Source of the DNA: Pirellulales bacterium
GTDB lineage: Bacteria > Planctomycetota > Planctomycetia > Pirellulales > JBGAPH01
Reading direction: 5' to 3'
NCBI GenBank assembly: GCA_046349955.1
Contig: JAXMBI010000030.1
Location: 17,302-81,301, forward strand
Length of the DNA: 64,000 nucleotides
Program-made: the position numbers and the translations under genes
Shown: in pieces, positions 5,409-28,889 of the stretch
Numbering within the stretch: position 1 is the stretch's first letter
Layout of the letters: each line of letters opens with the position of its first letter
The notes under the pieces: generated by a model
Seen by the model: the letters and a program-made list of their open reading frames with translations, nothing else
The model's database searches: none
Told to the model about the DNA's origin: nothing

Positions 5409-5447
5409 CCGGCTCGGGCCAACGGCCTCACGCAAAAATCTCGATAC

Positions 5448-5479
5448 GGCCTGGCAGCGCTGCCAGGCCGTTTTTCTTT
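5448..5479 (+). terminator. rho-independent terminator after the secretin gene
   Basis: Perfect 9-bp stem GGCCTGGCA / TGCCAGGCC with a GCGC loop, followed by GTTTTTCTTT. It lies 40 nt after the stop codon. Confidence 0.75.
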
Positions 5480-5858
5480 GCGCCGGCGAAAGGAAGGGAG
5501 GGGAGACGGCGGTCGGCACAGCGAGGGTCGACAATGATCCCGACAGCGCGCTCGGCATGCTATCATCCGATGCGGCTGGGCCGCACGTCAGCCGTCGCCC
5601 CTTGAAACGAGCCGAGCTCCTCGTGCTGCGTCACAGCTAGACGATGGGGTTGGCGAGTGGCGGGGTGTACCCCGCCGTGCCGCGCGCTGAGGAAATCGAG
5701 GCCTCCTGTACCGCGAGCCGTGATTGATTCGCTGCCAATTCCCACGACAAGTTGGCTGTGATCGTCGCTTCACTCGCTGAAGGAGTTTGTCGCCGCGGTA
5801 AGCCGGCGGCTCGCTGGGCCATTTGCTCCTCCGTCATGCGGACCCGAAAACGAGCGGT

Positions 5859-6406
5859 GACAAAAGCGCTAGTCGTTATGGTTCAGAAGCCCCCATTCGT
5901 AGTAAGTGTCGTCGATGCCGTAGTGAATCGACAACACAAAGGCGACCAATGTGGCGAGGCAAACCACCGCGCCCAGCCAGTCGGTCCAGGTCGGGCGCCA
6001 TTGCGACCGCACTCAAGGCGTGCGTCACAAGGTAGGCTAGAAACAACCCGCCGGCCAAGCGCTCGGCCTCCAGCCAGCCTGCGAGGCCCGCCGGAAAATA
6101 TAGCGCGGCAGGCAGCAGCCAAACCACCTCGCCAAAACCCAGCCGGCCGCGGCGGCCCCGCAGGTATTGCGCGCCGATGATCGCGGGGCCTGCAATCATG
6201 CCGTTGGCGAACCAGGCAGCACAATAGAACGACTGCCAACGCCCCCCTTCGCCGGCGAGCGTGCCAGCGCGAGCGATCGCCAATCCCGCCGCCGCCGCGC
6301 CGGTGAAAATCAGGGCATCCAGAATCGTCGGCCGACGAAACCGCCGGGCTGGCTCGTGTGCTTGAGTGGCTGGCTGATCGTTCATAGGCGGCTCCTGCGC
6401 AGTCAT
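5859..6406 (-). pseudogene. small integral membrane protein with an apparent frameshift (pseudogene or sequencing error)
   Basis: ORF 5876..6406 encodes TM-like segments and then, about 40 codons before its stop, turns into a low-GC3 Arg/His-rich tail. An adjacent frame from about 6012 to the stop at 5859-5861 has high GC3 and reads ...WTDWLGAVVCLATLVAFVLSIHYGIDDTYYEWGLLNHND, a clean TM helix. A TGA at 6013-6015 blocks that frame further upstream, so the frame switch must lie within about 5975-6012. Confidence 0.5.
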
Positions 6407-6439
6407 TGAGCTCGATCCAAGTCAGGGCGCACATCGCAG

Positions 6440-9010
6440 CTACTGTCCCGGCCCGGCAATCCGGCGCAGCCCTTCATGCGCGGCGTCTCGTGCTTCGGCG
6501 AACGCATCGTGCTCGAGTCGCTCGAGTTGCGGTTTGGCCACCTCGGCCTTTGGGCCCAAGTTGCCGAGGGTTCGAGCGGCCGACACGCGGACGGCCAGGT
6601 GGTCGTCGCTAAGCCGCGCGATGAGCGCCGAGACGGTCGCTGGCCGATCGTCGGACAAGCGACCGAGCGCCGTTGCAGCAGCGGCGCGCACGCGGAACGC
6701 GGGATCGGTCAAAGCCGTCGCCAGTTCATCGGCCGCAGGCAGGGCCGCGGCGCCGATGCCGCCAAGCGCGGTTGCGGCCCCCTCGCGCACGCGGCGGTTT
6801 TCGTCGTGCAGTCCTGCCCGCAAGCCTGGCACGGCGGGCTCGCCAATGGCCACTAAGGCCTTAACCGCGGCTTCGGCATCGCCAATACTTTGGCCTGCGT
6901 TCCCGAAGGCTTGAGTGACACAGTACCAGTCCTCCGAGCCGAGCATCTGGACCAGGCCGGGAACCGCGGGCGCGGCGGCAGGACCCAGCCGCGCGATAAC
7001 CTCGGCGACGCCCTGGGGCAGATCGTCCCGGCAAATCCGCGCGAGCGTCTGAATCACCGGCGGGCCGACCAAGCCCACTTCGACTAGCAGCTTGGCGCAA
7101 GCGAATTGCTCCGTCGCAGTTTCCTCTCTCCCTTTCCCCTCCGCCTGTTCCGAAAGTCCCGCGACCAGATCCTTTTCTGCGGCCTGAGCTTTTGGGCCGA
7201 GATTCCGCCAAGTCAAGGTCGCGTCGTCGTACTCGGGTGCATGCAACAGCATAGGGCCTGGACCGCGCAACGCCGCAGCCAGGCTGCGCACGGCAACCTG
7301 ATCGCCGGGATCGATCTTGACCAGAGCCGCCGCCCAGACGGCCTTATAGCTCGCGTGAAAGTGGCCGTTGAGCAGACGGCGCAACGTCGGCGAAATACTC
7401 GCTGCGCGAGTGCCCATGTCGCCCAGCGCCCTGACGAGCAATTCATCGACAGACTCGTCGGATTTCAACTCGAGTTCGAGAATCTCGAACAACCCCGGAT
7501 GATCAGGGTTGATCTTCGCGAGCGCGCACGCTGCCAAACGTCGCTTGGCCGGATCGGACACCAGGGGCTCGATCGCAGGAATTAGCTTCTTGCCTAGCGG
7601 CCCCAGCCTCCGGATCAATTCGAGCGCGGGACGCTCGATGCGGCGATCGATCACGATCTGCTCCAGCAGCGCCGCAGCGAGTTGATCTTGGGCCGGATTG
7701 AGCCGTTCGATCGCGTCGAGCGCCTGCTCGCCTGCTTCGTCGTTGAGCAGTCGCACCAACTGAGGGACCGCAGGCATCGCCGGCGGGCCCATTTGCCCCA
7801 AGCTATCGGCCGCGACGCCGCGCACAAAACTCTCCTGGTCGTTGAGCAGCGCAACGACCTCGGCAACAGCCGCAGCGTCGGCCTTCATGCGGCCAAGTTG
7901 TTGGACCGCGAGCGCGCGCACGATCCGATCTTTGTCATGCAACGCCCGCACGAGCGCTGGGCGCGCAGGTTCCCCGATCCTGCCCATGGCCGCGGCTGCA
8001 TGTTTGCCGACAATCCAGCCTCGATGAATGCCAGGCACAAAGTGCGACTGAGTGTCGCGAAGCGATCTCTCGAGAGGCTCCAGCGCGGTTGCCGCGCCCG
8101 CTCCCATGGCCCCCAAAGCGTCGGCCGCCGCGATTCGTTCGCCAAACACCGGACTGTCGAGCGCGCGGATCAACGCCGGAATCGCGACGGTTGCTTCTGG
8201 CCCGATCTTAGCCAATCGCTCGATGCCCGCATCGTGGTCATCGACGCTTGGGAATTCGCCGCTCGCGGGATTCGGAATAAAGATTTCGACGAGCGAAAGG
8301 AGCACCGGCACAAGTTTGTCGGCCGGCTCATCCAGTTCCCACAGCGACTCGGCGGCTGCTCCCTTCACGTCGGCAGACGCATCGCTGAGCAGAGATCGCA
8401 GCGCCTGGACAACGTCGTCGCGGCGAGCGGGCGTGACGGCGCCTAGAGCTTGCGCCGCCGCGGCCCGCACCTCCGCGGCTGGATCGCAGCAAGCGACCAA
8501 CAACGAGTCGATTGCAGATTTCGCTTTGAATCCCTGATCTTCGAGCAACTCCGCCGCCATTCTTTGCTGCTCGACGTCAGAAGCAGCGAGCGCCGCCGGC
8601 AGAGCCTCGATCGCCGCTTGATTCCCAGGCTCGCGATTGAGAATCGCTCGGGCGACCGTCACGCGAACGCCGGCGTTGGGGTATTCGAGAAGCACGCGGA
8701 GTTCGGCCGGAATCGTCTCGTTGCTCGGCGCAATGGTGGAGATGACGTCGAGCGCCACGCCTCGCGTTTCGGCGTCGGCGGTGGCAGCCAGATCGACCAC
8801 CAGCGGCAAGTGGTCGAGCGCGTCCTCGCGGCCTTCGTATAGATCGCTCAGACCCTCGAGCCGAACGTCGGGATCGGAACTATGGAGCTTTTCGAGCACC
8901 GAAGCCTGCGACTTTTCGACGGCGTCGTCCGGCTCATCGTCTTGCGTTTTGCCTACAGCGACCAGGCAGCCCGCAATTGCCAACGCCAAGAGAACGGCTC
9001 GGGGGTGCAT
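6440..9010 (-). CDS. HEAT-repeat (PBS-lyase-type) lipoprotein, 856 aa
   Basis: The N-terminus MHPRAVLLALAIAGC has a lipobox-like IAGC. There are more than 15 recurrences of the D-x-x-x-(V/R)R-x-x-A-A-x-(A/S)LG motif, for example DPAFRVRAAAATALGRL, DENRRVREGAATALGGIG, DHLAVRVSAARTLGNLG and ESFVRGVAADSLGQMG. Confidence 0.85.
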   Translation of the reverse strand: MHPRAVLLALAIAGCLVAVGKTQDDEPDDAVEKSQASVLEKLHSSDPDVRLEGLSDLYEGREDALDHLPLVVDLAATADAETRGVALDVISTIAPSNETIPAELRVLLEYPNAGVRVTVARAILNREPGNQAAIEALPAALAASDVEQQRMAAELLEDQGFKAKSAIDSLLVACCDPAAEVRAAAAQALGAVTPARRDDVVQALRSLLSDASADVKGAAAESLWELDEPADKLVPVLLSLVEIFIPNPASGEFPSVDDHDAGIERLAKIGPEATVAIPALIRALDSPVFGERIAAADALGAMGAGAATALEPLERSLRDTQSHFVPGIHRGWIVGKHAAAAMGRIGEPARPALVRALHDKDRIVRALAVQQLGRMKADAAAVAEVVALLNDQESFVRGVAADSLGQMGPPAMPAVPQLVRLLNDEAGEQALDAIERLNPAQDQLAAALLEQIVIDRRIERPALELIRRLGPLGKKLIPAIEPLVSDPAKRRLAACALAKINPDHPGLFEILELELKSDESVDELLVRALGDMGTRAASISPTLRRLLNGHFHASYKAVWAAALVKIDPGDQVAVRSLAAALRGPGPMLLHAPEYDDATLTWRNLGPKAQAAEKDLVAGLSEQAEGKGREETATEQFACAKLLVEVGLVGPPVIQTLARICRDDLPQGVAEVIARLGPAAAPAVPGLVQMLGSEDWYCVTQAFGNAGQSIGDAEAAVKALVAIGEPAVPGLRAGLHDENRRVREGAATALGGIGAAALPAADELATALTDPAFRVRAAAATALGRLSDDRPATVSALIARLSDDHLAVRVSAARTLGNLGPKAEVAKPQLERLEHDAFAEARDAAHEGLRRIAGPGQ

Positions 9011-16863: not shown

Positions 16864-18693
16864 ATGACCGTTGAACAGGACATTCCCGCTTTTCTTCAGT
16901 GGCTGCCGCCGGCGCTGCTGGGTTTTGCGCTGGCGGCCGCAGCCGTGGCCTTTCTGGCGCTGGTGTTTGGCTACGTGATCGCCGCCGCCCGGCATGGACC
17001 GGTGGCCGCCGGCGACATCACCTACCGCGTGGTTTCGACCGGTGTCGCCGACCTCTTGCGCACCTCGCCGCGGCGCGTGTTCGCCATCGCCAAGCTGGCG
17101 GTGCAGGAGTCGATTCGGCGGCGCGTGATCGTCGTGTTCGCCGTGTTCCTGGCGATCTTGCTCTTCGCCGGCTGGTATCTCGATGACTCGGTGGCCGACC
17201 CGGGCAAGCTCTATCTGAGCTTCGTGCTCTCCTGGACGAGCTACCTGGTGTTGCTGCTGGCGCTGTTCCTCAGCGTGTTCAGCCTGCCCAACGACATCAA
17301 GAACCGCACGATCTACACGATCGTGACCAAGCCGGTGCGCCCCGGCGAGATCGTGCTCGGCCGCATTCTGGGCTTCACCTTCGTGGGCACGCTGCTGCTG
17401 GCCTGCATGGGCGTGGCCAGTTACGTGTTCGTGGTTCGAGCCGTGGACCATAGCCATGGCGTCGTCGAAGTCGACGCCGCCGACGCCGCGACCGCCGGGC
17501 TGAAGCTGCGCTCCACCACCGACCACAACCACCGGCACGACGTGTTGACCGACAAAGACGGCAACTACGTGACCGACTTCCGCGAAGGGCACTGGCACGA
17601 GATCGAATCGCAGACCAGCGGCGACAAGACGAGCTACACCGTGGGTCCGCCCCTGGGCGTGCTGGTGGCTCGCGAGCCGCTCTACGCGGCGAAGCTCTCG
17701 TTTCTCGACCGCAACGGCAAGCCCACCGACAAGGGCGTGAACACCGGCAACGAATGGATGTACCGGAGCTTCATCGAAGGAGGCTCGCAGGCGGCGGCGA
17801 TCTGGAGTTTCGAGGGCGTCACGCCGACGTTGTTCCCGCGCGATCGCTTTCCCGACGGCCTGCCGCTCGAGTTGACGATTCGCGTTTTCCGCACGCACAA
17901 GGGAAACATCGAAAAAGGCGTGGCGGGGGGCATCGTGCTGCGCAATCCGCAAACGGGCGTCTCGACCGAACAGCTCGTGTTCCTGGCGCGCGACTACCAC
18001 GTCGACACGAAGCTGCTCAAGTGGGAGCAGAAGGACTCCAAGGGAAAGCCGCTCGACCTGATGAAGGACCTCGTGAGCAGCGACGGCAAGCTCGAGGTGA
18101 TCCTGACCTGCATCGACCCGGCCCAGTACTTTGGCATGGCCAAGGCCGACGTCTATCTCAAGGCCCGCGACGCCTCGTTTACTTGGAACTTCATTAAGGG
18201 CTTCGCCGGAATCTGGAGCCAGATGGTGCTGGTGATCGGCTTCGGCGTGATGTACAGCACCTTCCTGAACGGCGCCGTGGCGATGATGGCCACGCTCGGC
18301 ACGATTGTGGTCGGCTTCTTCGCCAGCTTCATCGCCCGCGTGATCCAAGGCACCTACAAGGGCGCGGAGACCGTGCCGGACGCCGTGATGGGGGGCGGAC
18401 CGATCGAATCCTTGATTCGCATCGTAACACAAAAGAACGTGATGACGGCCCTCGAGGAGAGTCCGGGCACGACCGTGGCCAAGATGCTCGATCAGGGACT
18501 GCTGTTCATGATGAGCGCGGTGGGCCGCATCGCCCCGAACTTTGGGGCGCTCGACAACTCCGATTACGTGGCCTACGGCTATAACATTCCCGCCGACATG
18601 GTGGGCGAACATCTGGTGACCGTGCTCGGCTACCTGCTCGCCCTGTTCGTGGCCGGCTACTTCTTCCTGAAGACGCGCGAGGTGGCCAAGTGA
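16864..18693 (+). CDS. ABC-2/NosY-like transporter permease with a large extracytoplasmic loop
   Basis: It follows the ATPase gene after an 81-nt gap. It has N- and C-terminal TM clusters plus a loop of about 230 aa. ATG 16864 is preferred over TTG 16831. The stop overlaps the next gene's GTG start (GTGA). Confidence 0.85.
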   Translation: MTVEQDIPAFLQWLPPALLGFALAAAAVAFLALVFGYVIAAARHGPVAAGDITYRVVSTGVADLLRTSPRRVFAIAKLAVQESIRRRVIVVFAVFLAILLFAGWYLDDSVADPGKLYLSFVLSWTSYLVLLLALFLSVFSLPNDIKNRTIYTIVTKPVRPGEIVLGRILGFTFVGTLLLACMGVASYVFVVRAVDHSHGVVEVDAADAATAGLKLRSTTDHNHRHDVLTDKDGNYVTDFREGHWHEIESQTSGDKTSYTVGPPLGVLVAREPLYAAKLSFLDRNGKPTDKGVNTGNEWMYRSFIEGGSQAAAIWSFEGVTPTLFPRDRFPDGLPLELTIRVFRTHKGNIEKGVAGGIVLRNPQTGVSTEQLVFLARDYHVDTKLLKWEQKDSKGKPLDLMKDLVSSDGKLEVILTCIDPAQYFGMAKADVYLKARDASFTWNFIKGFAGIWSQMVLVIGFGVMYSTFLNGAVAMMATLGTIVVGFFASFIARVIQGTYKGAETVPDAVMGGGPIESLIRIVTQKNVMTALEESPGTTVAKMLDQGLLFMMSAVGRIAPNFGALDNSDYVAYGYNIPADMVGEHLVTVLGYLLALFVAGYFFLKTREVAK

Positions 18694-20249
18694 ACCGCTG
18701 GTCCCGCATCCGCAAATACGGCCTCTACGGCGGCCTCATCGTGCTTCTGCTCGTGCCCATGGCGTGGCTCAGCCAACCGGCCACCAGCAAGTCGGCCGGC
18801 GGCAAGCTGGCCACGCTGCGGGCTGACTACAAGCTCAGCCAGGCGAACCTGGGCGAGATCGATCCGGCGAGCGCCACCATGCGGTTGGCTTCGCTGGGCA
18901 TGGCCAACGTGGGGGCCAACCTGCTCTGGTCGCGGGCGAACCACTATAAAAAGGTCGAGGACTGGACGAACTTCCGCGCCACCCTCGACCAGATCATCAA
19001 GCTGCAGCCCAACTTCGTGGCCGTGTGGCGGTTCCAGGCCTGGAACCTGTCGTACAACGTTTCGGCCGAGTTCGACGACTACAAGGACCGCTACCACTGG
19101 GTGAAAGAAGGCATCAAGTACCTGTACCGGGGCAATGAGTTCAACGCCGACAGCCCGCGGCTGCAGTGGGACACGGGGTGGTTCATCTCGCACAAGATCG
19201 GCCGCTCCGACGAGCGCAAGCAATTCCGCCGCATGTTCCGCCACGATGAAGATCTCTTCGGCGAAGACGCCAAGACCAACGAATACGACAACTGGCTCGA
19301 AGGCAAGCGCTGGTTCGAGCGCGCCCACGACACCGTGCGGCGGATCAACAGCTATAAAGGCATGAACCCGTTGATCTTTCATGCCGATCCGGCGATGGCC
19401 CAGATCAACTCCTCGGACAACCTCAACGAGGACGGCGTCTACGGCGAGCGGGCCAAGCAGTCCTGGCAAAAGTCGCACGACGATTGGACCCGCTACGGCG
19501 ACACGATCCTCCCCACCACCTTCGGCTTCGACATCGCACTCAACGATCAAGAGCCGATGGAGAAGAAGGCCAAGGAGCTGCGCGCCAAGCTCGACGAGTT
19601 GGCGCCCGGCGCCCGCGAGCAGATTCGCGAGGAAAAGCGGGCCGCGCTCAAGCCCGAGGAGCGCGCCGCCCTCGACGTGCCTTACGAACAGCGCTCTCCC
19701 GACCAGCAGCAGTTGGCCGGTCCCGTGGAAGACAAAGTGCTCGTCTCGCACCTCGAAGTGGCGCAGCGAGCTCCTGAGGCCAAGCGGCTCGAGGCGCTGA
19801 ACGTGGCTGACGAACTGGCCCGGGCCGAAGAATATGCCCATGGCGTGGAGCGTTACCGCAGCGTCGTGAACTTCAACTACTGGCGGACCCGCTGCGAGAT
19901 GGAACGCACCGACGACGCCATTGCGGCGCACGAACTGGTCCATTCAGGCAAGGAAAAACGCGCCAAGGGCCATCTGCAGGAAGCGAAGGAAGATTTCCGG
20001 GCGGGGCTGGCGAGGTGGAAGGTCGTGATGGCGAAGTTCCCCGAGTTGCTCGATGACCGCACCACGGGCGAGGAGCTGGCTGGCGTGATCGAGGAGTATC
20101 GCACGACGCTCGAGCTGCTCGACGAATCGTTCCCGGAAGACAAGTTCTTCCAGGACGTGCTCAATCGCTACGGGAAACAGGCGGCTATGGCGCGAGAGGA
20201 AGTGCCCGACGAGCCGGCCGAGCCGGCCGCGGCCGAGCCGGCCAAATAA
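18690..20249 (+). CDS. membrane-anchored hypothetical protein (519 aa) translationally coupled to the ABC permease
   Basis: GTG start within GTGA overlaps the permease stop. It has an N-terminal TM segment (YGLYGGLIVLLLVPMAWL), a helical repeat-like body and a charged coiled segment (EKKAKELRAKLDELAPGAREQIREEKRAAL). GC3 is high throughout. Confidence 0.8.
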   Translation: MNRWSRIRKYGLYGGLIVLLLVPMAWLSQPATSKSAGGKLATLRADYKLSQANLGEIDPASATMRLASLGMANVGANLLWSRANHYKKVEDWTNFRATLDQIIKLQPNFVAVWRFQAWNLSYNVSAEFDDYKDRYHWVKEGIKYLYRGNEFNADSPRLQWDTGWFISHKIGRSDERKQFRRMFRHDEDLFGEDAKTNEYDNWLEGKRWFERAHDTVRRINSYKGMNPLIFHADPAMAQINSSDNLNEDGVYGERAKQSWQKSHDDWTRYGDTILPTTFGFDIALNDQEPMEKKAKELRAKLDELAPGAREQIREEKRAALKPEERAALDVPYEQRSPDQQQLAGPVEDKVLVSHLEVAQRAPEAKRLEALNVADELARAEEYAHGVERYRSVVNFNYWRTRCEMERTDDAIAAHELVHSGKEKRAKGHLQEAKEDFRAGLARWKVVMAKFPELLDDRTTGEELAGVIEEYRTTLELLDESFPEDKFFQDVLNRYGKQAAMAREEVPDEPAEPAAAEPAK

Positions 20250-20301
20250 AGGAGGGCAGCGCGGGCAGGGGACTGGTTGGAAGCCGAGGACGTCGTTTCA
20301 G

Positions 20302-21087
20302 ATGCAAGGGTTCGCCGACGTCCACTGTCATCTCTGCGCCGGCCTGGACGACGGTCCCCGCACTCCCGACGATGCGCTCGAAATGTGCCAAATCGCCTGG
20401 GGCGAAGGCACACGCATGGTCGCCGCCACGGCCCATCAGAATGAATCGTGGCCAGAAGTCACGCCGGCAAGAATTCGCGAATCGGCGGCGACGCTGGCGG
20501 CCCAGTTGGCTGAGCTCGAAGTGCCGCTCGAGATCTTTCCCACGGCCGAGGTCATGGTTTGGGCGGGGCTCGAGGAAGCGTGGGACCGCGGCGAACTGCT
20601 CAGCGTCGCCGACGGCGGCAAGTATCTGCTCATCGAGTTGCCGGGCGGGCTGTTTCTCGATTTGTCTTCGCTGATCGTGGCCTTGCGCGAACGCGGACTC
20701 ACGCCGATCCTCGCGCATCCTGAGCGCCATCCCGAACTGCTTCATTCTCCCGGCGTCATGCAGCGCTGGATTGAGCTGGGCTGCCTGGCCCAGGTGTCGT
20801 CGGGGAGCCTGACCGGCGAGATCGCTCCGCGCGACGTGAAAGTTCTGCGGCAATGGGCGGAGCGGGGGCACATCCACCTCATCGGCTCCGACGGCCACTC
20901 GGTGCGGCGTCGGCCGCCGAAACTGGCGGCGGCGCACCGCGTGCTGGCGGAGTGGATCGGCCCGGCGGCTGCCCGGCAGATTTGCGAGACCAATGGCGCC
21001 GCGGTGTTTCGCGGCGAGCCGATCGAGCCGGTCCGCCCAGCGCGTCCCGCTCCCCGCCGCGGCTGGCTCAGCCGCTTCTTCGAATAG
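20302..21087 (+). CDS. PHP-family protein-tyrosine phosphatase (CpsB/YwqE type)
   Basis: The N-terminus reads FADVHCHLCAGLDDGP, followed by TAHQ, ILAHPERH and IGSDGHS. These are the metal-binding motifs of CpsB-type PHP phosphatases. Confidence 0.85.
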   Translation: MQGFADVHCHLCAGLDDGPRTPDDALEMCQIAWGEGTRMVAATAHQNESWPEVTPARIRESAATLAAQLAELEVPLEIFPTAEVMVWAGLEEAWDRGELLSVADGGKYLLIELPGGLFLDLSSLIVALRERGLTPILAHPERHPELLHSPGVMQRWIELGCLAQVSSGSLTGEIAPRDVKVLRQWAERGHIHLIGSDGHSVRRRPPKLAAAHRVLAEWIGPAAARQICETNGAAVFRGEPIEPVRPARPAPRRGWLSRFFE

Positions 21088-21332
21088 CGCTGCGCGAGAA
21101 TCGGCTGGCGTGCGCCGTACGATCGGCAAGGCCGTTAGCCTCGGAACAAGAAATCTCGCACCCACGCCAAGTTGCAGCGATCGGCTGAAGTTTGCGTTGA
21201 CTCTCCCCTCAGAGGAAGTAGGTTTGCGGTGGACCGCGGCCAGATGCGGCGGTCCTCCTAAATGCTTTTCACGACCTCAAAACTCGGCCTTTTGTGGCCG
21301 CTAATCGCCCGATCCGTGGCAGGCAGGCTCCC

Positions 21333-21515
21333 ATGTTCAACGCAATCGCGCGATTCTGGCACGATGACGAAGGCACAACCTCGGTGGAGTACGCCGTGAT
21401 GCTGGCGCTGATTCTGGTCGCCATCATCGGCGCCATTGGCAGCGTGGGGGGCCGAACCGGCGGCATGTGGGGCGGCATCAACACCGACCTCACCTCGGCC
21501 GGCTTCGGCAGCTAG
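21333..21515 (+). CDS. flp: Flp-family type IVb pilin
   Basis: 60-aa product MFNAIARFWHDDEGTTSVEYAVMLALILVAIIGAIG... carries the Flp prepilin motif (G / TTSVEY plus a hydrophobic helix). ATG 21333 is preferred over the upstream alternative start at 21294. Confidence 0.85.
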   Translation: MFNAIARFWHDDEGTTSVEYAVMLALILVAIIGAIGSVGGRTGGMWGGINTDLTSAGFGS

Positions 21516-22600
21516 TCTGCGGGGCGGCGCCCGTCCCTCAGGCCCACGAATAGCCGCCGCCATTGTGCCCAGAGTTCCGCTGGGTTAGTCAGTTCGATTA
21601 CGCGATCTCGCCCTGCGCTGGCCAACCGCCCGCGCAGGGCGTTGTTTTGCGCGAGCCGGCCGATCAGCGCCGGTACGTCGGCCGGCTCCGCGGCCAAGAG
21701 GCCGTGTTGTTCCGGAACGAGCATCTCGCGCCACCCCCAGGCATGCTGCACAACCAAGGGTGTGCCGCTGGCCAGGGCCTCGAGGCCGACGCGCGGCCAA
21801 TTCTCCTGGGCGCCGCCATTCACTTGCGCCAAGCAGTGCACTGAGCGCAAGAACTGATCGGCCGGTTCCCCTCCAGGCGGCAACGCCTCGGCCCAACTCG
21901 GGGGCGGCCCCAGCTTCTCTTGCACCTGATCGCTCCAGCCGAGCACCCGCACCTTGAACGGCCGGTAGGGGACCGCCGCGAACAACTCCCAGGTGTCTGG
22001 GTGAAACTTCGAGGGATCGGCGCGCGAGATTCGGCCGACGATGAACTCCTCGCCTGCCGCGTGGGGCAAGGGCCGGAAGGCGAAGTCGGCAAGGTCGAGC
22101 GCTCCGTGGATCAAGTGGCACTGCGCGGGCGACACTCCATAGCGCGTGAGCGTCGGGAGCAGGTTCTCCCGCTGAAATCGCGACTGAAATACATGCGCGT
22201 CGAACGGACCGTACTGTTCGTAGTGCCGCTCTTCCTCGGTGAAGATCCAGGTCATGCAGTTCGCCCAGACGAGCCGGCAACCGAGCGCGCGGAGGTCCCC
22301 GGCCCGGCGGAGAAACTCGTCGTTGCAGAACGACACGACGATCGCGTCCGCCAGACCAGGGACCGAGGCCAGCTCTGCGGGCCCCTCGATCTCGCAGGTG
22401 CGCAACCCCAACGTGTCGCACCGCCGCCGCCACTCGGGCGGGGTGCGCCACGTGGGGATGAGCGTGACCTCGAGGCCGTGGCTGCGCCACAGTTTGAGGA
22501 CGTGCCAGAGCTCGGTGTCAGCGCCGCCCAGCGCACTGGGATAGCCCACGACGAAGATCGGGGGCAGCCCCTGTTCGGCCGCGGCAAACGATGCCGACAT
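21512..22600 (-). CDS. GT-B fold glycosyltransferase (GT4-like)
   Basis: 362 aa. The C-terminal half carries the sugar-donor pocket pattern ENWPRVGLEALASGTPLVV (E-x7-E-like). The stop shares the palindrome CTAG with the flp stop. Confidence 0.75.
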   Translation of the reverse strand: MSASFAAAEQGLPPIFVVGYPSALGGADTELWHVLKLWRSHGLEVTLIPTWRTPPEWRRRCDTLGLRTCEIEGPAELASVPGLADAIVVSFCNDEFLRRAGDLRALGCRLVWANCMTWIFTEEERHYEQYGPFDAHVFQSRFQRENLLPTLTRYGVSPAQCHLIHGALDLADFAFRPLPHAAGEEFIVGRISRADPSKFHPDTWELFAAVPYRPFKVRVLGWSDQVQEKLGPPPSWAEALPPGGEPADQFLRSVHCLAQVNGGAQENWPRVGLEALASGTPLVVQHAWGWREMLVPEQHGLLAAEPADVPALIGRLAQNNALRGRLASAGRDRVIELTNPAELWAQWRRLFVGLRDGRRPAD

Positions 22601-22640: not shown

Positions 22641-23027
22641 TCAGCAAGTCACGCTGGCCTGGCACTTGCCGGTGAACGTCTTGCTGGCTAAGTCGTAGAT
22701 CACCGATCCCCCGGACGACGAAGACGTGGAAACGGGATACTCGGCCCAGACACAGATCTTGTTGTCAGGATAGGGCGCGTTCGGAGAGCACTGCGCCGTG
22801 CCCACCAGACCCAGACTGTAGTCGCCGTTGGCGTCGGGCGCTACATTCGCCGAACCGGCAGGCGGGCTCGCGCTGCACGTCCCGCTCGAGGAGATGATCT
22901 TCGCATAGACCTTGGTGGCTACGGTGCCCAGCTTGATCGCGCCGCCCCCCTTGACGCATACCAAGTTGCCGTTAGCGCAGTCGCAAGGGGTCTCCGCTCC
23001 GATCGGGCTGGTGATTGAGAGCGCCAT
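22641..23027 (-). CDS. Cys-rich small hypothetical protein (128 aa)
   Basis: ATG 23027 is preceded by GAAAGGAAG, which is SD-like, with a 4-nt spacer. GC3 is high, including the 56 nt that overlap the kinase 3' end. It has 8 Cys residues and Ser/Gly-rich stretches. There is no signal peptide and no recognisable family. Confidence 0.5.
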   Translation of the reverse strand: MALSITSPIGAETPCDCANGNLVCVKGGGAIKLGTVATKVYAKIISSSGTCSASPPAGSANVAPDANGDYSLGLVGTAQCSPNAPYPDNKICVWAEYPVSTSSSSGGSVIYDLASKTFTGKCQASVTC

Positions 23028-24960
23028 GCAGCTTCCTTTCGTTCCCTTGAAGCAACCAAAAACGGTGGAACCGCGTGGTTCCGATCCCGTTCAGGAGTCC
23101 GATGCCGCCTGGCCAATAGTGAGGACGATGCCGGTTGCCGTCGCGCACCAGCTTAGGGAGTTCCTGGCCGTCCCAGTAAACCTTGGTCAACCCGGTCTGA
23201 TCGATCGCGAGGTCAAGCGAGTGCCGTGTGCCAGGTTTCGGCATAGGCACGCTCTCAAAGGCGAATCCTTCGCTCCTGTGCCCCTCGCTCATCCCACTTT
23301 CGAAGGTGTACCAATACAGGCTGAGTTTTCGCTCTGGGTCGTCGGCCGCCCCCGGGCTCAGCAAGATGGCTTGATGGCTCCAGGAGGCTGGAAACTCCTG
23401 GCTGGGCACGGCGCCGAAGAAAATGCCGCTGTGGTGGAACCATTCCTCTTGAGACAACTCGAGATGCAAGGTGAAGGGGCCTTCGGGAGGCTCCTTCAAG
23501 GTCAGCCACCCCGCGCTCTGCACAGAGGTGGCAATATACCCGCCCTCATCCTGCGGATCGGGATCGAATTTGGCGCGCTCCGCAAAGGTTGCGTGATCCA
23601 AAAAGGGCGCAGGATACGCTGCAAGCAGATCCTTCACGATCAGCGGCTCGCGATACGACCGCACGATGCCTAAGAGCACGATCAATGCGAGCATGCCCAA
23701 GGCGACCACTTCGCCGCGCTTGAGCCGCCGAAGACGATTTCCGGCGGCCTCGCGCAGCAGTGTGGGCCGGACGGCAAAGGTGCTTCCCTGCACGTCGCTC
23801 TCGGTGCTAATTCCGCGCGCGAGGCGTCCCCGCACGAGCTCTCCCAGATTCGCGCCCTGGGCAAAGGGAGCGAGCCGCTCCGCCACCGCGCCCATCGAAG
23901 CGGTTCGCTCGCCCGGTGTCTTGGCCAGCATCTCTCTCAACAGCAACGCCAGGCCTTCAGGCACGTCGTCGCGGCGCGAACGGACATCGGGCGCCGCCGT
24001 TTCCAAGTGGGCTTTCATCCGCTCGAACGTGTCGCGCCCCTCCGCCTGAAACGGCGCTTGGCCGGTGAGCAGCTTGAAGAGCGTGCAGCCGAGCCCATAG
24101 ACGTCGGTCCGCGCGTCGACCGCCTCCGCCCGCCACTGCTCGGGGGCCATGTAGTCGGCCGTGCCTGAGCGATCGCCAGCTCCGCTGGCCAGGGAGGCGA
24201 GTCCCAGATCAAGCACTTTGACCTGCCCCGAATCGGAGACGAGCAAGTTCGAGGGCTTTACGTCGCGATGAACCACCTCGAGGCGATGGGCGGTTTCCAA
24301 ACCCGCCGCGGCCTGGCGGACGACCTCGCAAGCTTCGGCGATGGGCAGCGGCCCGCCGTCGAGCATCAGACGGCGCAAATCGACGCCGGCGACGTGCTCC
24401 ATGACCAGGTAGTGGTGCCCATCAGCTTCGCCCGCGTCGTGGGCCAAGATGACGTGCGGATCGGCGAACTTGCCGATCATTTCCATCTCGCGATGGAACC
24501 GCGCGATGGCCTCGGCGTCGGCCAGCCGCTGCGGGGCGAGGAATTTGATCACGACCCGCCGCTTGAGCCGCACGTGCTGGCCCAGGTAGACGCTGCCCAT
24601 GCCGCCCTGGCCGATAAAGTCGCCCAGCAGATAAGGGCCGAACTGCCGCGGGAAGGGCCGGGTTTCCACGGGCTCGCCCTGGCCCGGATCGCGCGCCTTG
24701 AGTTCGTGTCGGAGGAGGGACAGCTCCGCCGACTCGACAGGGGCGGTAGTCGCGTCGCCGCTGGTCTCGCCGCGAATGAGGCCGACAACCGAGTCGCTGG
24801 CGTCGTTATGGGCTTGGAGAAACTCCTGGCAGCGAGAGCACTGCCCCACATGGTGGGCCACCGCCACCAGGCGCTCTTCTTCGAGCTTGCCTACGCTCAG
24901 CGCGACGAGCTCATGGTTGGGCGGGCATCGGAGCGCTGGCTGATCCGCTGGCGTCTTCAT
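22972..24960 (-). CDS. transmembrane Hanks-type Ser/Thr protein kinase with an N-terminal ZAS-like anti-sigma motif and a C-terminal DUF1080/LamG-like sensor domain
   Basis: Kinase motifs are IGQGGMGSVYLG, VIKFL, HRDVKPSNLLV, DLGLA and GTADYMAPEQ. The TM helix is VVALGMLALIVLLGIV. N-terminal residues C12, H37, C41 and C44 form HxxxCxxC. The C-terminal ...GGIGLLNGIGTTRFHRFWLL resembles the end of DUF1080 domains; that assignment is tentative. Confidence 0.9.
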   Translation of the reverse strand: MKTPADQPALRCPPNHELVALSVGKLEEERLVAVAHHVGQCSRCQEFLQAHNDASDSVVGLIRGETSGDATTAPVESAELSLLRHELKARDPGQGEPVETRPFPRQFGPYLLGDFIGQGGMGSVYLGQHVRLKRRVVIKFLAPQRLADAEAIARFHREMEMIGKFADPHVILAHDAGEADGHHYLVMEHVAGVDLRRLMLDGGPLPIAEACEVVRQAAAGLETAHRLEVVHRDVKPSNLLVSDSGQVKVLDLGLASLASGAGDRSGTADYMAPEQWRAEAVDARTDVYGLGCTLFKLLTGQAPFQAEGRDTFERMKAHLETAAPDVRSRRDDVPEGLALLLREMLAKTPGERTASMGAVAERLAPFAQGANLGELVRGRLARGISTESDVQGSTFAVRPTLLREAAGNRLRRLKRGEVVALGMLALIVLLGIVRSYREPLIVKDLLAAYPAPFLDHATFAERAKFDPDPQDEGGYIATSVQSAGWLTLKEPPEGPFTLHLELSQEEWFHHSGIFFGAVPSQEFPASWSHQAILLSPGAADDPERKLSLYWYTFESGMSEGHRSEGFAFESVPMPKPGTRHSLDLAIDQTGLTKVYWDGQELPKLVRDGNRHRPHYWPGGIGLLNGIGTTRFHRFWLLQGNERKLHGALNHQPDRSGDPLRLR

Positions 24961-25564
24961 GATTCGTCGCCTGGCGATTCGCTCTTAAGTGACGGATAAC
25001 GCGCGATCTAATGACATAGACGGTTGCGAGCTTCAGGTCGTAGCGGGCCGCCAATTCGTGCGCGGTCGACGTGCCGTTCACCATTTCGCGGCAGATGATC
25101 CAATCGCGGTCGCTCACCTCGGCCCGCAGCCGGTCGATTTCTGCCTGACGCCAATCGAGGTCGTCCTCTTCTTCCCTGGGAGAAGGCAAACTGTGGAGCC
25201 GAACCAGGGCCTCGGAGCCGCCCTCGGCGACGCCTACGCGGCGTTTCCGCCGCCGTTCTTCGTCGAGCGCCTTTCTTGCCGTAATCTGCCGCAGCCAGCC
25301 GCGGAACGTGTCGGTGTCTCGATCATGGCGGTACTGTTCGAGATTTGCCATCACGGCGGACAGCGCCTCTTGGACGACGTCACGGGCGTCGTTCGGCGGC
25401 ACTCCGTATTTCAGGCACCACGAGTAGATCGTGTTCGCGTACTTGTCGACCAACTCATTCCACGCTGACGGGTCGGCGGCGACCGCCTTTCGCAGCAGCG
25501 AGGTCGAGGTCCCGCTCAAGCCATCGTGCGGCCCTCTACCATCATTAACGTTTGGACCTGTCAT
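24911..25564 (-). CDS. ECF-type RNA polymerase sigma-70 family factor
   Basis: Region 2 reads DARDVVQEALSAV ... FRGWLRQITARKALD. The region 4 helix-turn-helix reads AHELAARYDLKLATVYVIRSRVIRHLR. The 3' end overlaps the kinase start by 50 nt. Confidence 0.9.
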   Translation of the reverse strand: MTGPNVNDGRGPHDGLSGTSTSLLRKAVAADPSAWNELVDKYANTIYSWCLKYGVPPNDARDVVQEALSAVMANLEQYRHDRDTDTFRGWLRQITARKALDEERRRKRRVGVAEGGSEALVRLHSLPSPREEEDDLDWRQAEIDRLRAEVSDRDWIICREMVNGTSTAHELAARYDLKLATVYVIRSRVIRHLRANRQATNHEDASGSASAPMPAQP

Positions 25565-25965
25565 GATTTTTCCAAAACGGTTCCGAGGCAGATCCTTCTG
25601 ATGCTAACGACCGGGCTTTCTCCCGCAACAGGGGGGGTGTTTTCAAAATCGTGTTAGATCCGAACGTTAATAGTAGTAGGGAATGCCATTTCCCACCCCA
25701 CAGTTCATGTTTGCGAGGACCGGGCCTCCGTGGGCCGCCCCGCCTTGGGGCGGCCCACTTTTCGACTCTCGCGAGCGGCAAAACCGTTCGGAGGCGAATT
25801 GTTTTTGTGTAGTGTATGCGTGTTGCGTATCTTGGCTCTGCCGGAGGGAACTCGTTGCCGGGTATGGCGTACGAGCTCCCTTTTCCCGTCATCAGGTCGC
25901 GCGCTTGGTTCTACGTCTTGCCGGGTGCAACGATTTGATTGCGGCTTCAACCGCTTAGGCATACG

Positions 25966-27450
25966 ATGGCGCGGGCGGGCGCCATCGGAGCCAAGCGGAG
26001 GATCGTCGTGCGGGTTTCCCTAGGACTATCGATTCAACGAGCTTTCCTCGCCCTCGCCTGCCTTGTGGCGGTCGGCGGTTTCCCCGGCCCTCTTCTCGGA
26101 CAAGAGCTCTCGGTTGGAACCGCTCAGGTAGAAATCACGCCGCCGCGCGGCATGCGCATGTGCGGCTACTTCTTCGAACGGCTGAACACCGGCACGCATG
26201 ACCCCCTCTGGGCCAAGGCCCTCGTCTTCCAGCAGGGCGACGTGCGGGCAGCGCTGGTGTTCTGCGATCTGATCGGGTTGCCGCGCGCGGTCACGCAGCG
26301 GGCGCGCCGCGACGCCGCGATCAAGACGGGCATCCCGGCCGATAACATTCTGGTCGCCGCCACCCACAGCCACACCGGCCCGCTCTACTTTGACGCTCTT
26401 CGCGACTTCTACCACTCCCAGGCCGTGGGACATTTCGGGCAAGATGCGGCGGAGCCGGTCGACTACTCCGCCGTGCTAGCCGGCAAGATCGTCGCCGCGG
26501 TCGAGGCTGCCCACAAAGCCGCCAAGCCGGCAACGCTGGCGGCGGGCGTCGCGCAACAGCGTGGCCTGTCCTTCAACCGCCGCTTCCATCTCCGCGACGG
26601 TTCGGTGGTCTTCAATCCGGGCAAGCTCAACCCGAACATCGTTCGCCCAGCCGGTCCGATCGACCCGGATCTTGGGCTGGTAGCCGTGCGAGACGCCGCT
26701 GGCCAAACCGAGGCCGTGCTCGCCGTGTTTGCCCTTCATCTCGATACGGTCGGCGGCACAGACTATTCCGCGGACTACCCCTTCTACTTGGAGCGGGGGC
26801 TGCAAACGGCGTTGGGGCCGCGCGTGGTTTCTTTATTCGCGGCCGGAACCTGCGGCGACATCAACCACATCGACGTGACGCACGACCGCCCCCAAGGCGG
26901 TCAGGCGGAGGCCGAGCGGATCGGCAGCGCACTATCTGCCACAGCAACGAGCACGCTCGCCAATTTGCCTCCAATCGCAAACCCCTCGCTGGCGGTGCGG
27001 CGGGCGATCGTCGAAGCGCCGCTGCAGACTTATCCTCCAGAGCAGCTCGAAGCCGCCCGCCAACGGCTGCCGGAGGTCGGGCGCCGGCTGATGCCGTTCC
27101 TGGAGGAGGTCGAGACGGTCAAAATCGTGGACCTCGAGCGTCTTGGCGGGCAGCCCAACTACCCGCTCGAGACCCAGGTGTTTCGGTTCAGCGACGAGGT
27201 GGCGGTCGTGGGGCTGCCCGGGGAGGTCTTCGTCGAGTTGGGACTCGCCATCAAGGCCGCTTCGCCCTTCCCGACGACGCTTGTGATCGAGCTGGCCAAC
27301 GACGACCCGGCTTACATTCCCACGCGCAAGGCCTTCGCCGAAGGGAGCTACGAAACGGTCAACTCGCGGGTGCAGTCGGGGAGCGGCGAGCAACTCGTCG
27401 AGGCGGCGGTGCGGCTGCTCAAGGAGCTGGCGGTCCGGCCCGATAAATAG
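25966..27450 (+). CDS. neutral/alkaline ceramidase-like hydrolase (secreted)
   Basis: Signal-like segment AFLALACLVAVGG. The N-terminal domain pattern is GYFFERLNTGTHDPLWAKALVF ... LVFCDLIGL ... ATHSHTGP, which is characteristic of the non-lysosomal ceramidase N-terminal domain. This is a call from memory. Confidence 0.7.
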   Translation: MARAGAIGAKRRIVVRVSLGLSIQRAFLALACLVAVGGFPGPLLGQELSVGTAQVEITPPRGMRMCGYFFERLNTGTHDPLWAKALVFQQGDVRAALVFCDLIGLPRAVTQRARRDAAIKTGIPADNILVAATHSHTGPLYFDALRDFYHSQAVGHFGQDAAEPVDYSAVLAGKIVAAVEAAHKAAKPATLAAGVAQQRGLSFNRRFHLRDGSVVFNPGKLNPNIVRPAGPIDPDLGLVAVRDAAGQTEAVLAVFALHLDTVGGTDYSADYPFYLERGLQTALGPRVVSLFAAGTCGDINHIDVTHDRPQGGQAEAERIGSALSATATSTLANLPPIANPSLAVRRAIVEAPLQTYPPEQLEAARQRLPEVGRRLMPFLEEVETVKIVDLERLGGQPNYPLETQVFRFSDEVAVVGLPGEVFVELGLAIKAASPFPTTLVIELANDDPAYIPTRKAFAEGSYETVNSRVQSGSGEQLVEAAVRLLKELAVRPDK

Positions 27451-27644
27451 CCTGAAAAACGCACACACTAATCGTCCTATCCGATTGGTAAATAACGACT
27501 TGCGCTATGACATGCCGGCGGGTCGGCTGTTTGGGGAAGTTCTGTGTAACACTTTGCTCCGCTTCTCGCTGGTGCTGTTAGAGACGGCAAACAGCCCGCC
27601 ACGGTGGCCAGGGCCGCCGTGGCGAACGAAAGCGAGAGTGAGCA

Positions 27645-28889
27645 ATGAAAAGCCTCTGGACCAAGTTTTTGACGGGCATCGCGGTTGCGGGAACGTTGAT
27701 CGGCAGCACGGCTTCGGCCGCCGGCCATAAGGGGTTCAGCTTTGGGGGCGGCGGAGGCGGCGGCAACTCGATGCGGTCGCAGAGTTTCAGCGGCAACCTG
27801 GGGAACGCCCTGAAGATCAACTCGAACCTGAACCAGAACCAATTCAAGGCCCGCACGCTGGGCAACGTTTCCGGCAGCCAATTCCAGAGCCTCTCGAAGG
27901 GCCTGAAGGCGGGCAACCAGTCGTTCGGCCAGAAGTTCGGCTCGCAGATCGGGACCAACCAGAACCAGTTCAAGGGTCTGCAGCGCGTTGGCCAGCTCAA
28001 CGGCCAGAACGGCAAGTTGCTCAACCAAATGTTCCACGGCGCCCAGACCTTCCAAGGGAACAAAGGCCTGCAGAAGGTCAATGGCTTGCCAGGGCTCGTC
28101 GGCGGCCAGTTCGGCAAGCAGCAGTTCAACCCCGCAAAGTTCAACGGCCTGACCAAGCAGAACAACTTCTTCGGAAGCTTCGGCAATCACCCCAACAAGT
28201 CGAACAAGAGCTTCTGCTTCGGCAACAGCGGCTGGTGCGGCTGGAACAACTGGTACAACCCCTGGTGCTACCGCCCGTACTGCTACAACTACAACTCCTG
28301 CTACGGCTACCCGTACTACTGCGGCTACCCCGTCTACAACAGCTACCCTGTCTACAACAACACGGTGACCTATGTGACGCCGGCTCAGCCGGTGGCGACC
28401 GAGCCGGCCCCGCAGCTCCCCTTGGCCGACTTGCTGCTGACCGATCTGCGGTTGATGGATCCGGGCAACGGGACCGACCTGGGCCCGCGGTTCCTGCTGA
28501 CGATTGCCAACCAAGGTCCCTCGGTTTCGCCTCCCTTCCAAGCGGGGATCGCGGCCGCGGTCAGCCAGGAACAGCTCGGCTCAGCGGTGAAGGCCGCCGC
28601 CCAAGTGGGGCCGATCCAGACTGGCCAGACCACGACCGTGGAGATTCGGCTGCCGGTGCAGGTTCTTGGCCTGCCGAGCCCCAACGGCCCGACGCTGTTC
28701 GGAGTGCTTGGTGTTTCGCTGGATGAGCTGAACCAGGTGGACGAGCTCGACGAGCAGAACAACGGCGCCCTTGTGAGCCGCGACCAAATTCAGCCCCTGC
28801 AAGCCGCCCCGGCCCCGCAAGGCCCGACGGCCAACCTGGCCGCGAACGGCCCGAGCGTTCCGCCGATGCTGAGCCTGCCCCCACAGTAA
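27645..28889 (+). CDS. secreted low-complexity protein: Q/N/G/F/K-rich region, Cys/Tyr/Trp/Asn-rich segment and CARDB-like domain
   Basis: Signal peptide MKSLWTKFLTGIAVAGTLIGSTASA. Residues about 30-190 are rich in N, Q, G, F, K and S, with NQNQFK occurring twice. Residues 189-238 read SFCFGNSGWCGWNNWYNPWCYRPYCYNYNSCYGYPYYCGYPVYNSYPVY. Residues about 259-376 look like CARDB (DLLLTDLRLMDPGNG ... LLTIANQG ... VDELDEQNN). A strong terminator follows. Confidence 0.8.
   Translation: MKSLWTKFLTGIAVAGTLIGSTASAAGHKGFSFGGGGGGGNSMRSQSFSGNLGNALKINSNLNQNQFKARTLGNVSGSQFQSLSKGLKAGNQSFGQKFGSQIGTNQNQFKGLQRVGQLNGQNGKLLNQMFHGAQTFQGNKGLQKVNGLPGLVGGQFGKQQFNPAKFNGLTKQNNFFGSFGNHPNKSNKSFCFGNSGWCGWNNWYNPWCYRPYCYNYNSCYGYPYYCGYPVYNSYPVYNNTVTYVTPAQPVATEPAPQLPLADLLLTDLRLMDPGNGTDLGPRFLLTIANQGPSVSPPFQAGIAAAVSQEQLGSAVKAAAQVGPIQTGQTTTVEIRLPVQVLGLPSPNGPTLFGVLGVSLDELNQVDELDEQNNGALVSRDQIQPLQAAPAPQGPTANLAANGPSVPPMLSLPPQ

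Follow-up and report, generated by a model that had tools for sequence, protein, structure and literature searches.

A planctomycete receptor kinase with a predicted class I anti-sigma domain, encoded in overlap with an ECF sigma factor

The described systems in which the gene for a sigma factor of the extracytoplasmic function (ECF) type adjoins that of a Hanks-type receptor kinase include group ECF43. No member of this group has the acidic DAED motif in region 2.2, where EcfP has STTA, and phosphorylation at the region 2.2 site restores binding to the core RNA polymerase (PMC8999054). Phosphosites in the linker between the sigma2 and sigma4 domains are important in EcfK (T106) and are present in SigH (PMC13147305). 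In other kinase-linked ECF groups a DAED-like motif is retained, and their mode of action may be different (PMC8999054, PMC8103513); the reference ECF classification treats kinase-linked groups as lacking anti-sigma factors (PMC7826278). Here we analyse a sigma factor/kinase pair from a Pirellulales bacterium, located on a stretch of 64,000 nucleotides of contig JAXMBI010000030.1 (positions 17,302 to 81,301 of the forward strand; this whole stretch is referred to as the window), in which the N-terminus of the kinase carries a module that resembles zinc anti-sigma (ZAS) domains. By published description the pair fits group ECF62, which is said to have been termed ECFSTK by Jogler and co-workers in 2012.

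In the supplement of Casas-Pastor et al. 2021 (bioRxiv version, supplementary text and Table S2), ECF62 is described as exclusive to Planctomycetes, and its kinase at position +1 as having one transmembrane (TM) helix and "a zinc-finger in N-terminal". Two further systems are relevant for comparison. In Mycobacterium tuberculosis, the receptor kinase PknB phosphorylates the ZAS anti-sigma factor RshA, upon which SigH is released (PMC8999054, PMC13147305). PknS, the kinase partner of EcfK, has a conserved segment of 83 amino acids of unknown role before its kinase domain (PMC13147305).

The putative zinc anti-sigma module and its genomic coupling to the sigma factor

The kinase of the window comprises 662 amino acids, arranged as an anti-sigma-like domain, a linker, a kinase domain, one TM helix and an extracytoplasmic jelly-roll domain. 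Its N-terminus (MKTPADQPALRCPPNHELVALSVGKLEEERLVAVAHHVGQCSRCQ) contains C12, H37, C41 and C44, exactly as the first-pass annotation of the window had read them. The HxxxCxxC pattern formed by the last three residues precedes the kinase domain in 86 of the 120 best kinase homologues. We aligned 85 N-termini, which were chosen solely on HxxxCxxC and are 17-55% identical to the window copy. All four putative zinc ligands are invariant (85/85) and the Cys-x24-His spacing is fixed, so that the residues whose conservation among relatives the first-pass annotation had made a test of its proposal are fully conserved. Pro13 and Leu18 are each present in >90% of the aligned modules, and a motif D-x-[LIV]-[VI]-x-x-L-R recurs about 12 residues past the CxxC.

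A profile built from the 85 modules was searched against all PDB sequences, and the best matches are ChrR (2q1z_B, 1.8e-6), DdvA (8rlz_A, 2.5e-6), RslA (3hug_B, 2.4e-5), a CHAT-domain protein with an N-terminal ZAS domain (8rot_B, 8.9e-5) and RsiW (5wuq_C, 0.012). No meaningful match beyond ZAS-type or class I anti-sigma domains was found in this search. H37, C41 and C44 align on H31, C35 and C38 of ChrR. Extending this alignment without gaps places C12 on residue 6 of ChrR, which we take to be the first zinc ligand in the ChrR structure. Individually, 52 of the 85 modules reach the Pfam family zf-HC2 (PF13490) at E<0.01. Judged from its sequence, the N-terminal module is a genuine homologue of class I ZAS-type anti-sigma domains, as the first-pass annotation had suggested. 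The profile check that it had proposed for the kinase N-terminus gives a divided answer, with the window copy alone staying below threshold and the family profile being significant.

In a search of 1.84 billion representative proteins, the module profile has 38,493 matches at E<=1e-3, of which 2,614 reach E<=1e-10, and a Hanks kinase domain directly follows the module in 30 of the 42 best new matches of at least 350 amino acids. Standard annotation overlooks the domain, with a precomputed zf-HC2 match in no more than 3 of the 120 best kinase homologues, since the majority of copies fall narrowly short of the Pfam cut-off. Examples are the full-length relatives P0111 (21.7 bits) and P0056 (17.3 bits). 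The NCBIfam models for ChrR (E = 0.0014) and RsrA (E = 0.009) likewise give weak signals with the first 60 residues of the window kinase, both far under their cut-offs. In a structure predicted with AF2, the anti-sigma domain (ASD) would consist of four helices (residues 15-22, 28-40, 42-51 and 57-67) with a predicted local distance difference test score (pLDDT) of 92-94, the last of which bears the conserved motif as D-S-V-V-x-L-I-R. A fifth, weaker helix (residues 70-89) is predicted in the linker, where the pLDDT is 51-81.

Proteins elsewhere in the databases carry the HxxxCxxC anti-sigma-like module in tandem, with 3-5 copies at a period of about 52 or 70 amino acids (P0138-P0154 and others), which is an unusual arrangement. 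The copies are followed by a Hanks kinase in P0141 (five copies) and in P0142, P0145, P0147 and P0154 (three copies each), and occur without a kinase in P0138-P0140, P0143 and P0150.

The sigma factor is recognised by Pfam Sigma70_r2 (E = 1.5e-12) and by the NCBIfam model sigma70-ECF (54.5 bits versus a cut-off of 42.9), and does not exceed the cut-offs of TIGR02984 and TIGR02989, the NCBIfam models of planctomycete sigma subfamilies. Its region 2.2 reads N-D-A-R-D-V-V-Q-E, with the acidic DxxD motif intact; DxxD is found in about 83% of 137 members of the sigma family, mostly as DAAD. The assignment to ECF43 suggested in the first-pass annotation therefore has to be rejected. Although the sigma gene does adjoin a Hanks kinase gene, the window sigma has DARD and most of its family has DxxD, whereas ECF43 is without DAED. 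Since DxxD is intact, no phosphorylation should be needed for the sigma factor to bind the core, and this is consistent with control by sequestration. The linker between sigma2 and sigma4 reads G115-G116-S117-E118-A119, and Ser or Thr follows the Gly-Gly pair in 124 of 131 family members (the sigma factor of locus L002 has Glu there). By analogy with T106 of EcfK and T106/T110 of SigH, S117 is a candidate phospho-acceptor and might provide a second control point.

The relation between module and sigma factor was examined in 80 genome loci of kinase relatives, in which all open reading frames (ORFs) were scanned with a hidden Markov model (HMM) of the window's sigma family. A family sigma factor (E = 1e-37 to 1e-74) is adjacent to 16 of the 22 module-bearing kinases, 12 of these sigma genes lying upstream on the same strand and four being divergent. 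None of the 58 module-less kinases has an adjacent family sigma factor, and three of them show merely weak or unrelated ECF matches (Fisher's exact test for module versus adjacent sigma, p = 2.8e-12). The module is tightly and specifically coupled to the co-encoded sigma factor, and the pairing that the first-pass annotation had read from the single locus extends to most module-bearing kinases of the wider set.

The gene arrangement itself recurs. The window kinase is 100% identical to P0001, which comes from a Pirellulales metagenome-assembled genome, and its closest orthologue, P0002 (53% identity), has the identical 50-nt overlap with its sigma gene (sigma 4394-5050, kinase 5001-6959 of locus L081). 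Overlapping or adjacent sigma/kinase arrangements are also present in L001, L002 and L083. The paralogue P0005 in L083 seemed to be an orphan, but its start is overlapped by an ORF that had not been called and that the sigma HMM recognises at 6e-58. Viewed from the side of the sigma factor, whose family profile matches 3,047 proteins at E<=1e-10, five loci were checked. One lies at a contig end, and in each of the remaining four the +1 position is taken by a kinase; the three of these kinases with DNA all begin with CP...HxxxCxxC...D-x-[LVF]-[VI]. In locus L088 a second kinase, farther downstream of the sigma gene and beyond the +1 kinase, does not carry the module. In P0056 (914 amino acids, from a JGI metagenome), a family sigma factor, the ZAS module and the kinase are joined in a single ORF. 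At ~35 amino acids, the junction is similar in length to the sigma tail plus kinase N-terminus of the window pair, and within it the start that is typical of these kinases, M-D-S-L-D-N-L-P-G-G-A-L-C-P, continues the reading frame of the sigma factor.

Proposed mechanism and its alternatives

We think it probable that the receptor kinase also serves as a class I anti-sigma factor at the membrane, which tethers the sigma factor and releases it on signalling. The first ~70 residues of the kinase would form a zinc-stabilised class I ASD that binds the co-translated ECF sigma factor and holds it at the membrane. The sigma factor, with its intact DxxD, would be intrinsically able to bind RNA polymerase, and would require sequestration rather than an activating phosphorylation at the motif. 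A signal, possibly a glycan, would be sensed by the concanavalin-A-like outer domain and would activate the Hanks kinase across the single TM helix. Phosphorylation would then free the sigma factor, either in cis, on the ASD or on the Ser/Thr-rich linker between ASD and kinase domain, which by its composition is a candidate autophosphorylation region, and/or on S117 of the sigma linker. The circuit would amount to a one-polypeptide version of PknB-RshA-SigH from M. tuberculosis. The analysis establishes that the module is homologous to solved anti-sigma domains, that its four ligands are invariant, that it is specifically coupled to the sigma gene, that the kinase active site is intact and what fold the sensor domain has. 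Within this proposal we infer the binding of zinc, the binding and inhibition of the sigma factor, in which direction and on which target phosphorylation acts, and the ligand.

Several observations weigh against this proposal. A ZAS motif alone does not imply redox sensing, and the window copy itself matches zf-HC2 only at E = 0.03 (14.9 bits, under the Pfam gathering score of 22.2). Six of the 22 module-bearing kinases have no sigma factor within 4 kb. The fused protein P0056 could be a real fusion by loss of a stop codon, or an artefact of sequencing, assembly or gene calling; the latter may apply because no further sigma-kinase fusion occurs among the best 120 of the 3,047 sigma-profile matches. 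In a mirror-tree comparison of 20 sigma/kinase pairs, the distance correlation of the sigma factor with the ASD (r = 0.58) does not exceed its correlation with the kinase domain (r = 0.68), and the partial correlation between sigma factor and ASD given the kinase domain is 0.31. These correlations are uninformative, because sigma factor, ASD and kinase domain are inherited together. No experimental study of any family member was found in the searchable literature, in line with what the first-pass annotation had supposed, and searches on zf-HC2 or anti-sigma domains in connection with kinases or with Planctomycetes yielded nothing except ECF classification papers.

Structure prediction of the putative complex adds little in either direction. 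We modelled an artificial concatenation of the window sigma factor and kinase residues 1-112 with AF2, using an unpaired alignment and the natural tails as a linker of ~33 amino acids. The model has a mean pLDDT of 80 and a predicted template modelling score of only 0.52, and the interface between sigma factor and ASD is not readable from it. In Foldseek comparisons the sigma part of the model lies nearer to sigma factors taken out of their complexes with anti-sigma factors (1or7_A, 6in7_B, 5wur_A and 4nqw_A; root mean square deviation (rmsd) 9-10 Å) than to holoenzyme-bound sigma chains (rmsd about 24 Å), with TM-scores to the complexed chains of just about 0.5. The predicted arrangement of sigma2 and sigma4 is a weak hint of a conformation closer to the anti-sigma-bound state.

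The current default in the field for kinase-linked ECF groups is that the kinase acts by phosphorylation only. Applied to this pair, the kinase would activate the sigma factor, for example on the GG[S/T] site of the linker, and the zinc module would serve as a docking or scaffolding element that does not inhibit. That the sigma factor is directly phosphorylated is proven in the ECF43 pairs EcfP/PknT and EcfK/PknS, including linker residue T106 (PMC8999054, PMC13147305), and Casas-Pastor et al. treat such groups as lacking anti-sigma factors (PMC7826278). The active site of the window kinase is intact, and the Ser or Thr after the Gly-Gly pair is present in nearly all members of the sigma family (124/131). 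We nevertheless regard this explanation as unlikely, if still deserving serious attention. With DxxD intact there is no obvious built-in defect of the sigma factor for a kinase to repair; the homology of the module is specifically to anti-sigma domains of class I, which are inhibitory; and docking would still need binding to the sigma factor. To our knowledge, in every solved class I complex (RseA, ChrR and RslA) binding of the anti-sigma factor occludes core-binding surfaces of the sigma factor. Sequestration and phosphorylation of the sigma factor are not mutually exclusive, and together they correspond to the dual mode that the first-pass annotation had envisaged.

It is also conceivable that the module regulates the kinase itself, by redox- or metal-dependent autoinhibition or by dimerisation, and makes no contact with the sigma factor, the adjacency of the two genes then reflecting a phosphorylation link or shared regulation. 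Some ZAS domains are indeed thiol-redox switches, as in RsrA. The six module-bearing kinases that have no neighbouring sigma factor would suit such a role, and 3-5 tandem modules, with or without a kinase, are hard to reconcile with one-to-one binding of a sigma factor. Orphan kinases and tandem-module proteins keep the idea alive at a low level; the coupling statistics make a sigma-independent role of the module improbable. A kinase with the module can be predicted nearly perfectly to have an adjacent sigma factor of one specific family, and a kinase without the module to have none (p = 2.8e-12). The coupling persists through gene rearrangement, as the four divergent pairs illustrate, and all significant PDB matches of the module are sigma-binding domains. 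That the Cys/His pattern is a functionless chance resemblance might be argued from the score of the window copy alone (just E = 0.03 against zf-HC2), and we give this practically no credence. It is refuted by conservation, the ligands and their spacing being invariant in 85 divergent sequences, and by a profile that matches 38,493 proteins (E<=1e-3) and anti-sigma structures at about 1e-6.

If the receptor kinase does act as an anti-sigma factor in this pair, the same might apply more widely. We put it at close to an even chance, and slightly below, that the DxxD-keeping sigma factors of the ECF62 type, which number in the thousands, are not devoid of anti-sigma factors, and that in each case the receptor kinase sequesters the sigma factor while its own kinase domain triggers the release. 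Such a cis-fused switch of the PknB-RshA type would be a distinct and so far uncharacterised way of controlling ECF sigma factors, and may also phosphorylate the GG[S/T] site of the sigma linker. By the present analysis, the zinc finger of the ECF62 supplement is a homologue of solved anti-sigma domains and a predictor of the cognate sigma factor, which offers a concrete and cheaply testable answer to the question how ECF62-type sigma factors are controlled. If confirmed, a mechanism of sequestration plus kinase would join the known modes of sigma regulation, and a large share of signal transduction in Planctomycetota would have to be reclassified. The window locus is not special within its family; what makes it valuable is that it suggests a testable mechanism for sigma regulators that form a large and unstudied class.

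Gene pair, sensor domain and neighbourhood

The coordinates of the pair, of its domains and of the neighbouring elements are listed in Table 1. They confirm the overlap of 50 nt between the sigma and kinase genes that the first-pass annotation had reported, and this overlap suggests translational coupling. The complete Hanks kinase domain, the single TM helix and the beta-rich outer domain that it had also reported are supported by Pfam, by hydropathy and by a structure model, respectively, and the string GGIGLLNGIGTTRFHRFWLL is found at the C-terminus of the kinase as claimed.

Table 1. Positions of the sigma factor/kinase pair, its domains and neighbouring elements in the window.
Feature	Position	Strand	Details
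Sigma ORF	24911-25564	-	ECF sigma factor gene; 217 aa
Sigma S117	25214-25216		conserved GG[S/T] of the sigma2-sigma4 linker
Kinase ORF	22972-24960	-	662 aa; ATG is the first start codon past the upstream in-frame stop
Overlap of sigma 3' end and kinase 5' end	24911-24960	-	exactly 50 nt, different frames
Zinc anti-sigma module (class I ASD, ZAS-type; predicted)	24760-24927	-	kinase residues 12-67; putative ligands C12, H37, C41, C44
ASD-to-kinase linker	24640-24759	-	residues 68-107; rich in Ser, Thr and acidic residues (ETSGDATTAPVESAELS)
Hanks-type catalytic domain	23851-24639	-	residues 108-370
Single TM helix	23662-23709	-	residues 418-433 (VVALGMLALIVLLGIV); hydropathy maximum, sole strongly hydrophobic segment
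Extracytoplasmic all-beta sensor domain	23041-23661	-	residues about 434-640
Small Cys-rich ORF	22641-23027	-	128 aa (MALSITSP...CDC...CVWAEYP...SSSS...C); unannotated; overlaps kinase 3' end by 56 nt
Conserved blocks upstream of sigma	25597-25758	-	candidate promoter or leader elements
GC-rich hairpin	25730-25758		GTGGGCCGCC...GGCGGCCCAC; sigma upstream region
Upstream block	25713-25726		GGCCCGGTCCTCGC
Upstream block	25662-25669		TAACGTTC
Upstream block	25597-25608		GTTAGCATCAGA
Group-1 glycosyltransferase	21512-22600	-	counterpart downstream of the kinase in L081
CpsB/CapC-type capsule-synthesis protein	20302-21087	+	
Neutral/alkaline ceramidase-like protein	25939-27450	+	
Q/N/G-rich protein	27645-28889	+	weak CARDB match; CARDB-like gene upstream of, and divergent from, sigma in L081

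The Pfam Pkinase family matches residues 113-358 of the kinase (E = 1e-46), and the catalytic motifs comprise the G-loop GQGGMG, K139, HRDVKPSN (231-238), DLG (251-253), the activation-loop residue T267 and APE (273-274). K139, D233, N238, D251 and E274 are invariant in an alignment of 33 orthologues, and from these motifs the kinase looks catalytically competent. A basic stretch, RLRRLKRGE, precedes the TM helix on the cytoplasmic side, and the position of the helix is conserved in the orthologue alignment.

The outer domain is predicted to be all beta (AF2 model with pLDDT 87.9 and predicted template modelling score 0.86). Its best Foldseek match in the PDB is the CBM66 structure 4b1m (E = 4e-6, TM-score 0.71 on the target); next come lectin domains of calreticulin, GH16 enzymes and Hc domains of botulinum toxins. 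According to this model, the domain has a concanavalin-A-like jelly-roll fold. The first-pass annotation had called it, tentatively, DUF1080/LamG-like. This stands at the level of the fold, with CBM66 as the best match, and fails at the level of sequence, where we reject DUF1080 membership. The domain has no Pfam match (none to PF06439 at E<=1) and no sequence match in the PDB, and hhalign gives a probability of 0.2% against P0111, which has a true PF06439 domain. Among 29 orthologues, one matches PF06439 (E = 2.6e-4). The likeness to CBM66 and to DUF1080 (3-keto-disaccharide hydrolase, PF06439) thus consists of a shared fold, and the true PF06439 domain of the related kinase P0111 occupies the same position in the protein. 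Outer domains vary among related kinases (WD40, LRR, FGE-sulfatase, PA14 and true DUF1080), as expected of a receptor family.

The small Cys-rich ORF that follows the kinase gene has homologues, detected by tblastn (E = 1e-28 to 1e-35) and 53-55% identical, immediately downstream of the kinases P0002 (L081/L082) and P0005 (L083), with a conserved start MALSIT/MPPSIT. The ORF was not found in the remaining loci that were fetched, has no Pfam family and shows no obvious signal peptide. It may represent a third operon gene in this sub-clade. Some of these genes are poorly represented in public gene calls. The sigma gene upstream of P0005 (L083 4225-5070) appears as a call of just 59 amino acids, and the Cys-rich gene after P0002 (L081 6916-7311) is replaced by a call of 60 amino acids on the opposite strand. 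Genes at overlapping junctions are thus missed, and surveys based on genomic context will under-count such pairs.

Upstream of the sigma gene, 8- to 14-mers recur in the same order before the orthologous sigma gene of L081, although the encoded proteins are only 53% identical. We consider these blocks candidate promoter or leader elements from their conservation. Rfam gave no match to the sigma upstream region, and no ECF-type -35/-10 promoter could be confidently assigned within the blocks. The neighbouring genes on both sides (18690-22600 and 25939-28889) suggest a cell-envelope or polysaccharide context.

Comparison with known systems

The window pair shares every descriptive feature of ECF62, namely the occurrence in Planctomycetes, the kinase at +1, the single TM helix and the N-terminal zinc finger. 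The architecture is common and catalogued, and the window locus is an unexceptional case within a known and large family; the novelty implied by the first-pass annotation does not hold, since the ECF62 supplement already lists the zinc finger of the +1 kinase. The published account, however, leaves this zinc finger uninterpreted as an anti-sigma domain. The outer domains differ as well, as the window kinase has a predicted concanavalin-A-like domain and the largest ECF62 subgroups have WD40 repeats.

With the class I anti-sigma factors ChrR, RslA, RsiW, RsrA and DdvA, the module has in common the HxxxCxxC pattern and an upstream Cys/His ligand at the same spacing, homology at the profile level, four predicted helices, and a gene position directly downstream of, and overlapping, the cognate ECF sigma gene. 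RslA, RsiW and DdvA are moreover anchored in the membrane and have an extracytoplasmic sensor, like the window protein. In contrast to these proteins, the window protein has a complete and apparently active Hanks kinase between the ASD and the TM helix. Known class I members release their sigma factors by proteolysis, oxidation or conformational change, and none is known to do so by a built-in kinase.

The ECF43 pairs EcfP/PknT from Vibrio parahaemolyticus and EcfK/PknS from Xanthomonas citri resemble the window pair in that the ECF sigma gene adjoins the gene of a Hanks receptor kinase with one TM helix. EcfP and EcfK are inactive until phosphorylated at their DAED-less site, whereas the window sigma factor has DARD, and neither PknT nor PknS has been reported to carry a ZAS motif. 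In the M. tuberculosis systems PknB/RshA/SigH and PknB/RseA/SigE, a Hanks receptor kinase acts on a ZAS anti-sigma factor and frees an ECF sigma factor, as we propose for the window pair. There, kinase and anti-sigma factor are separate proteins encoded apart from each other; in the window, the kinase and the predicted anti-sigma domain form a single polypeptide, encoded beside the sigma gene.

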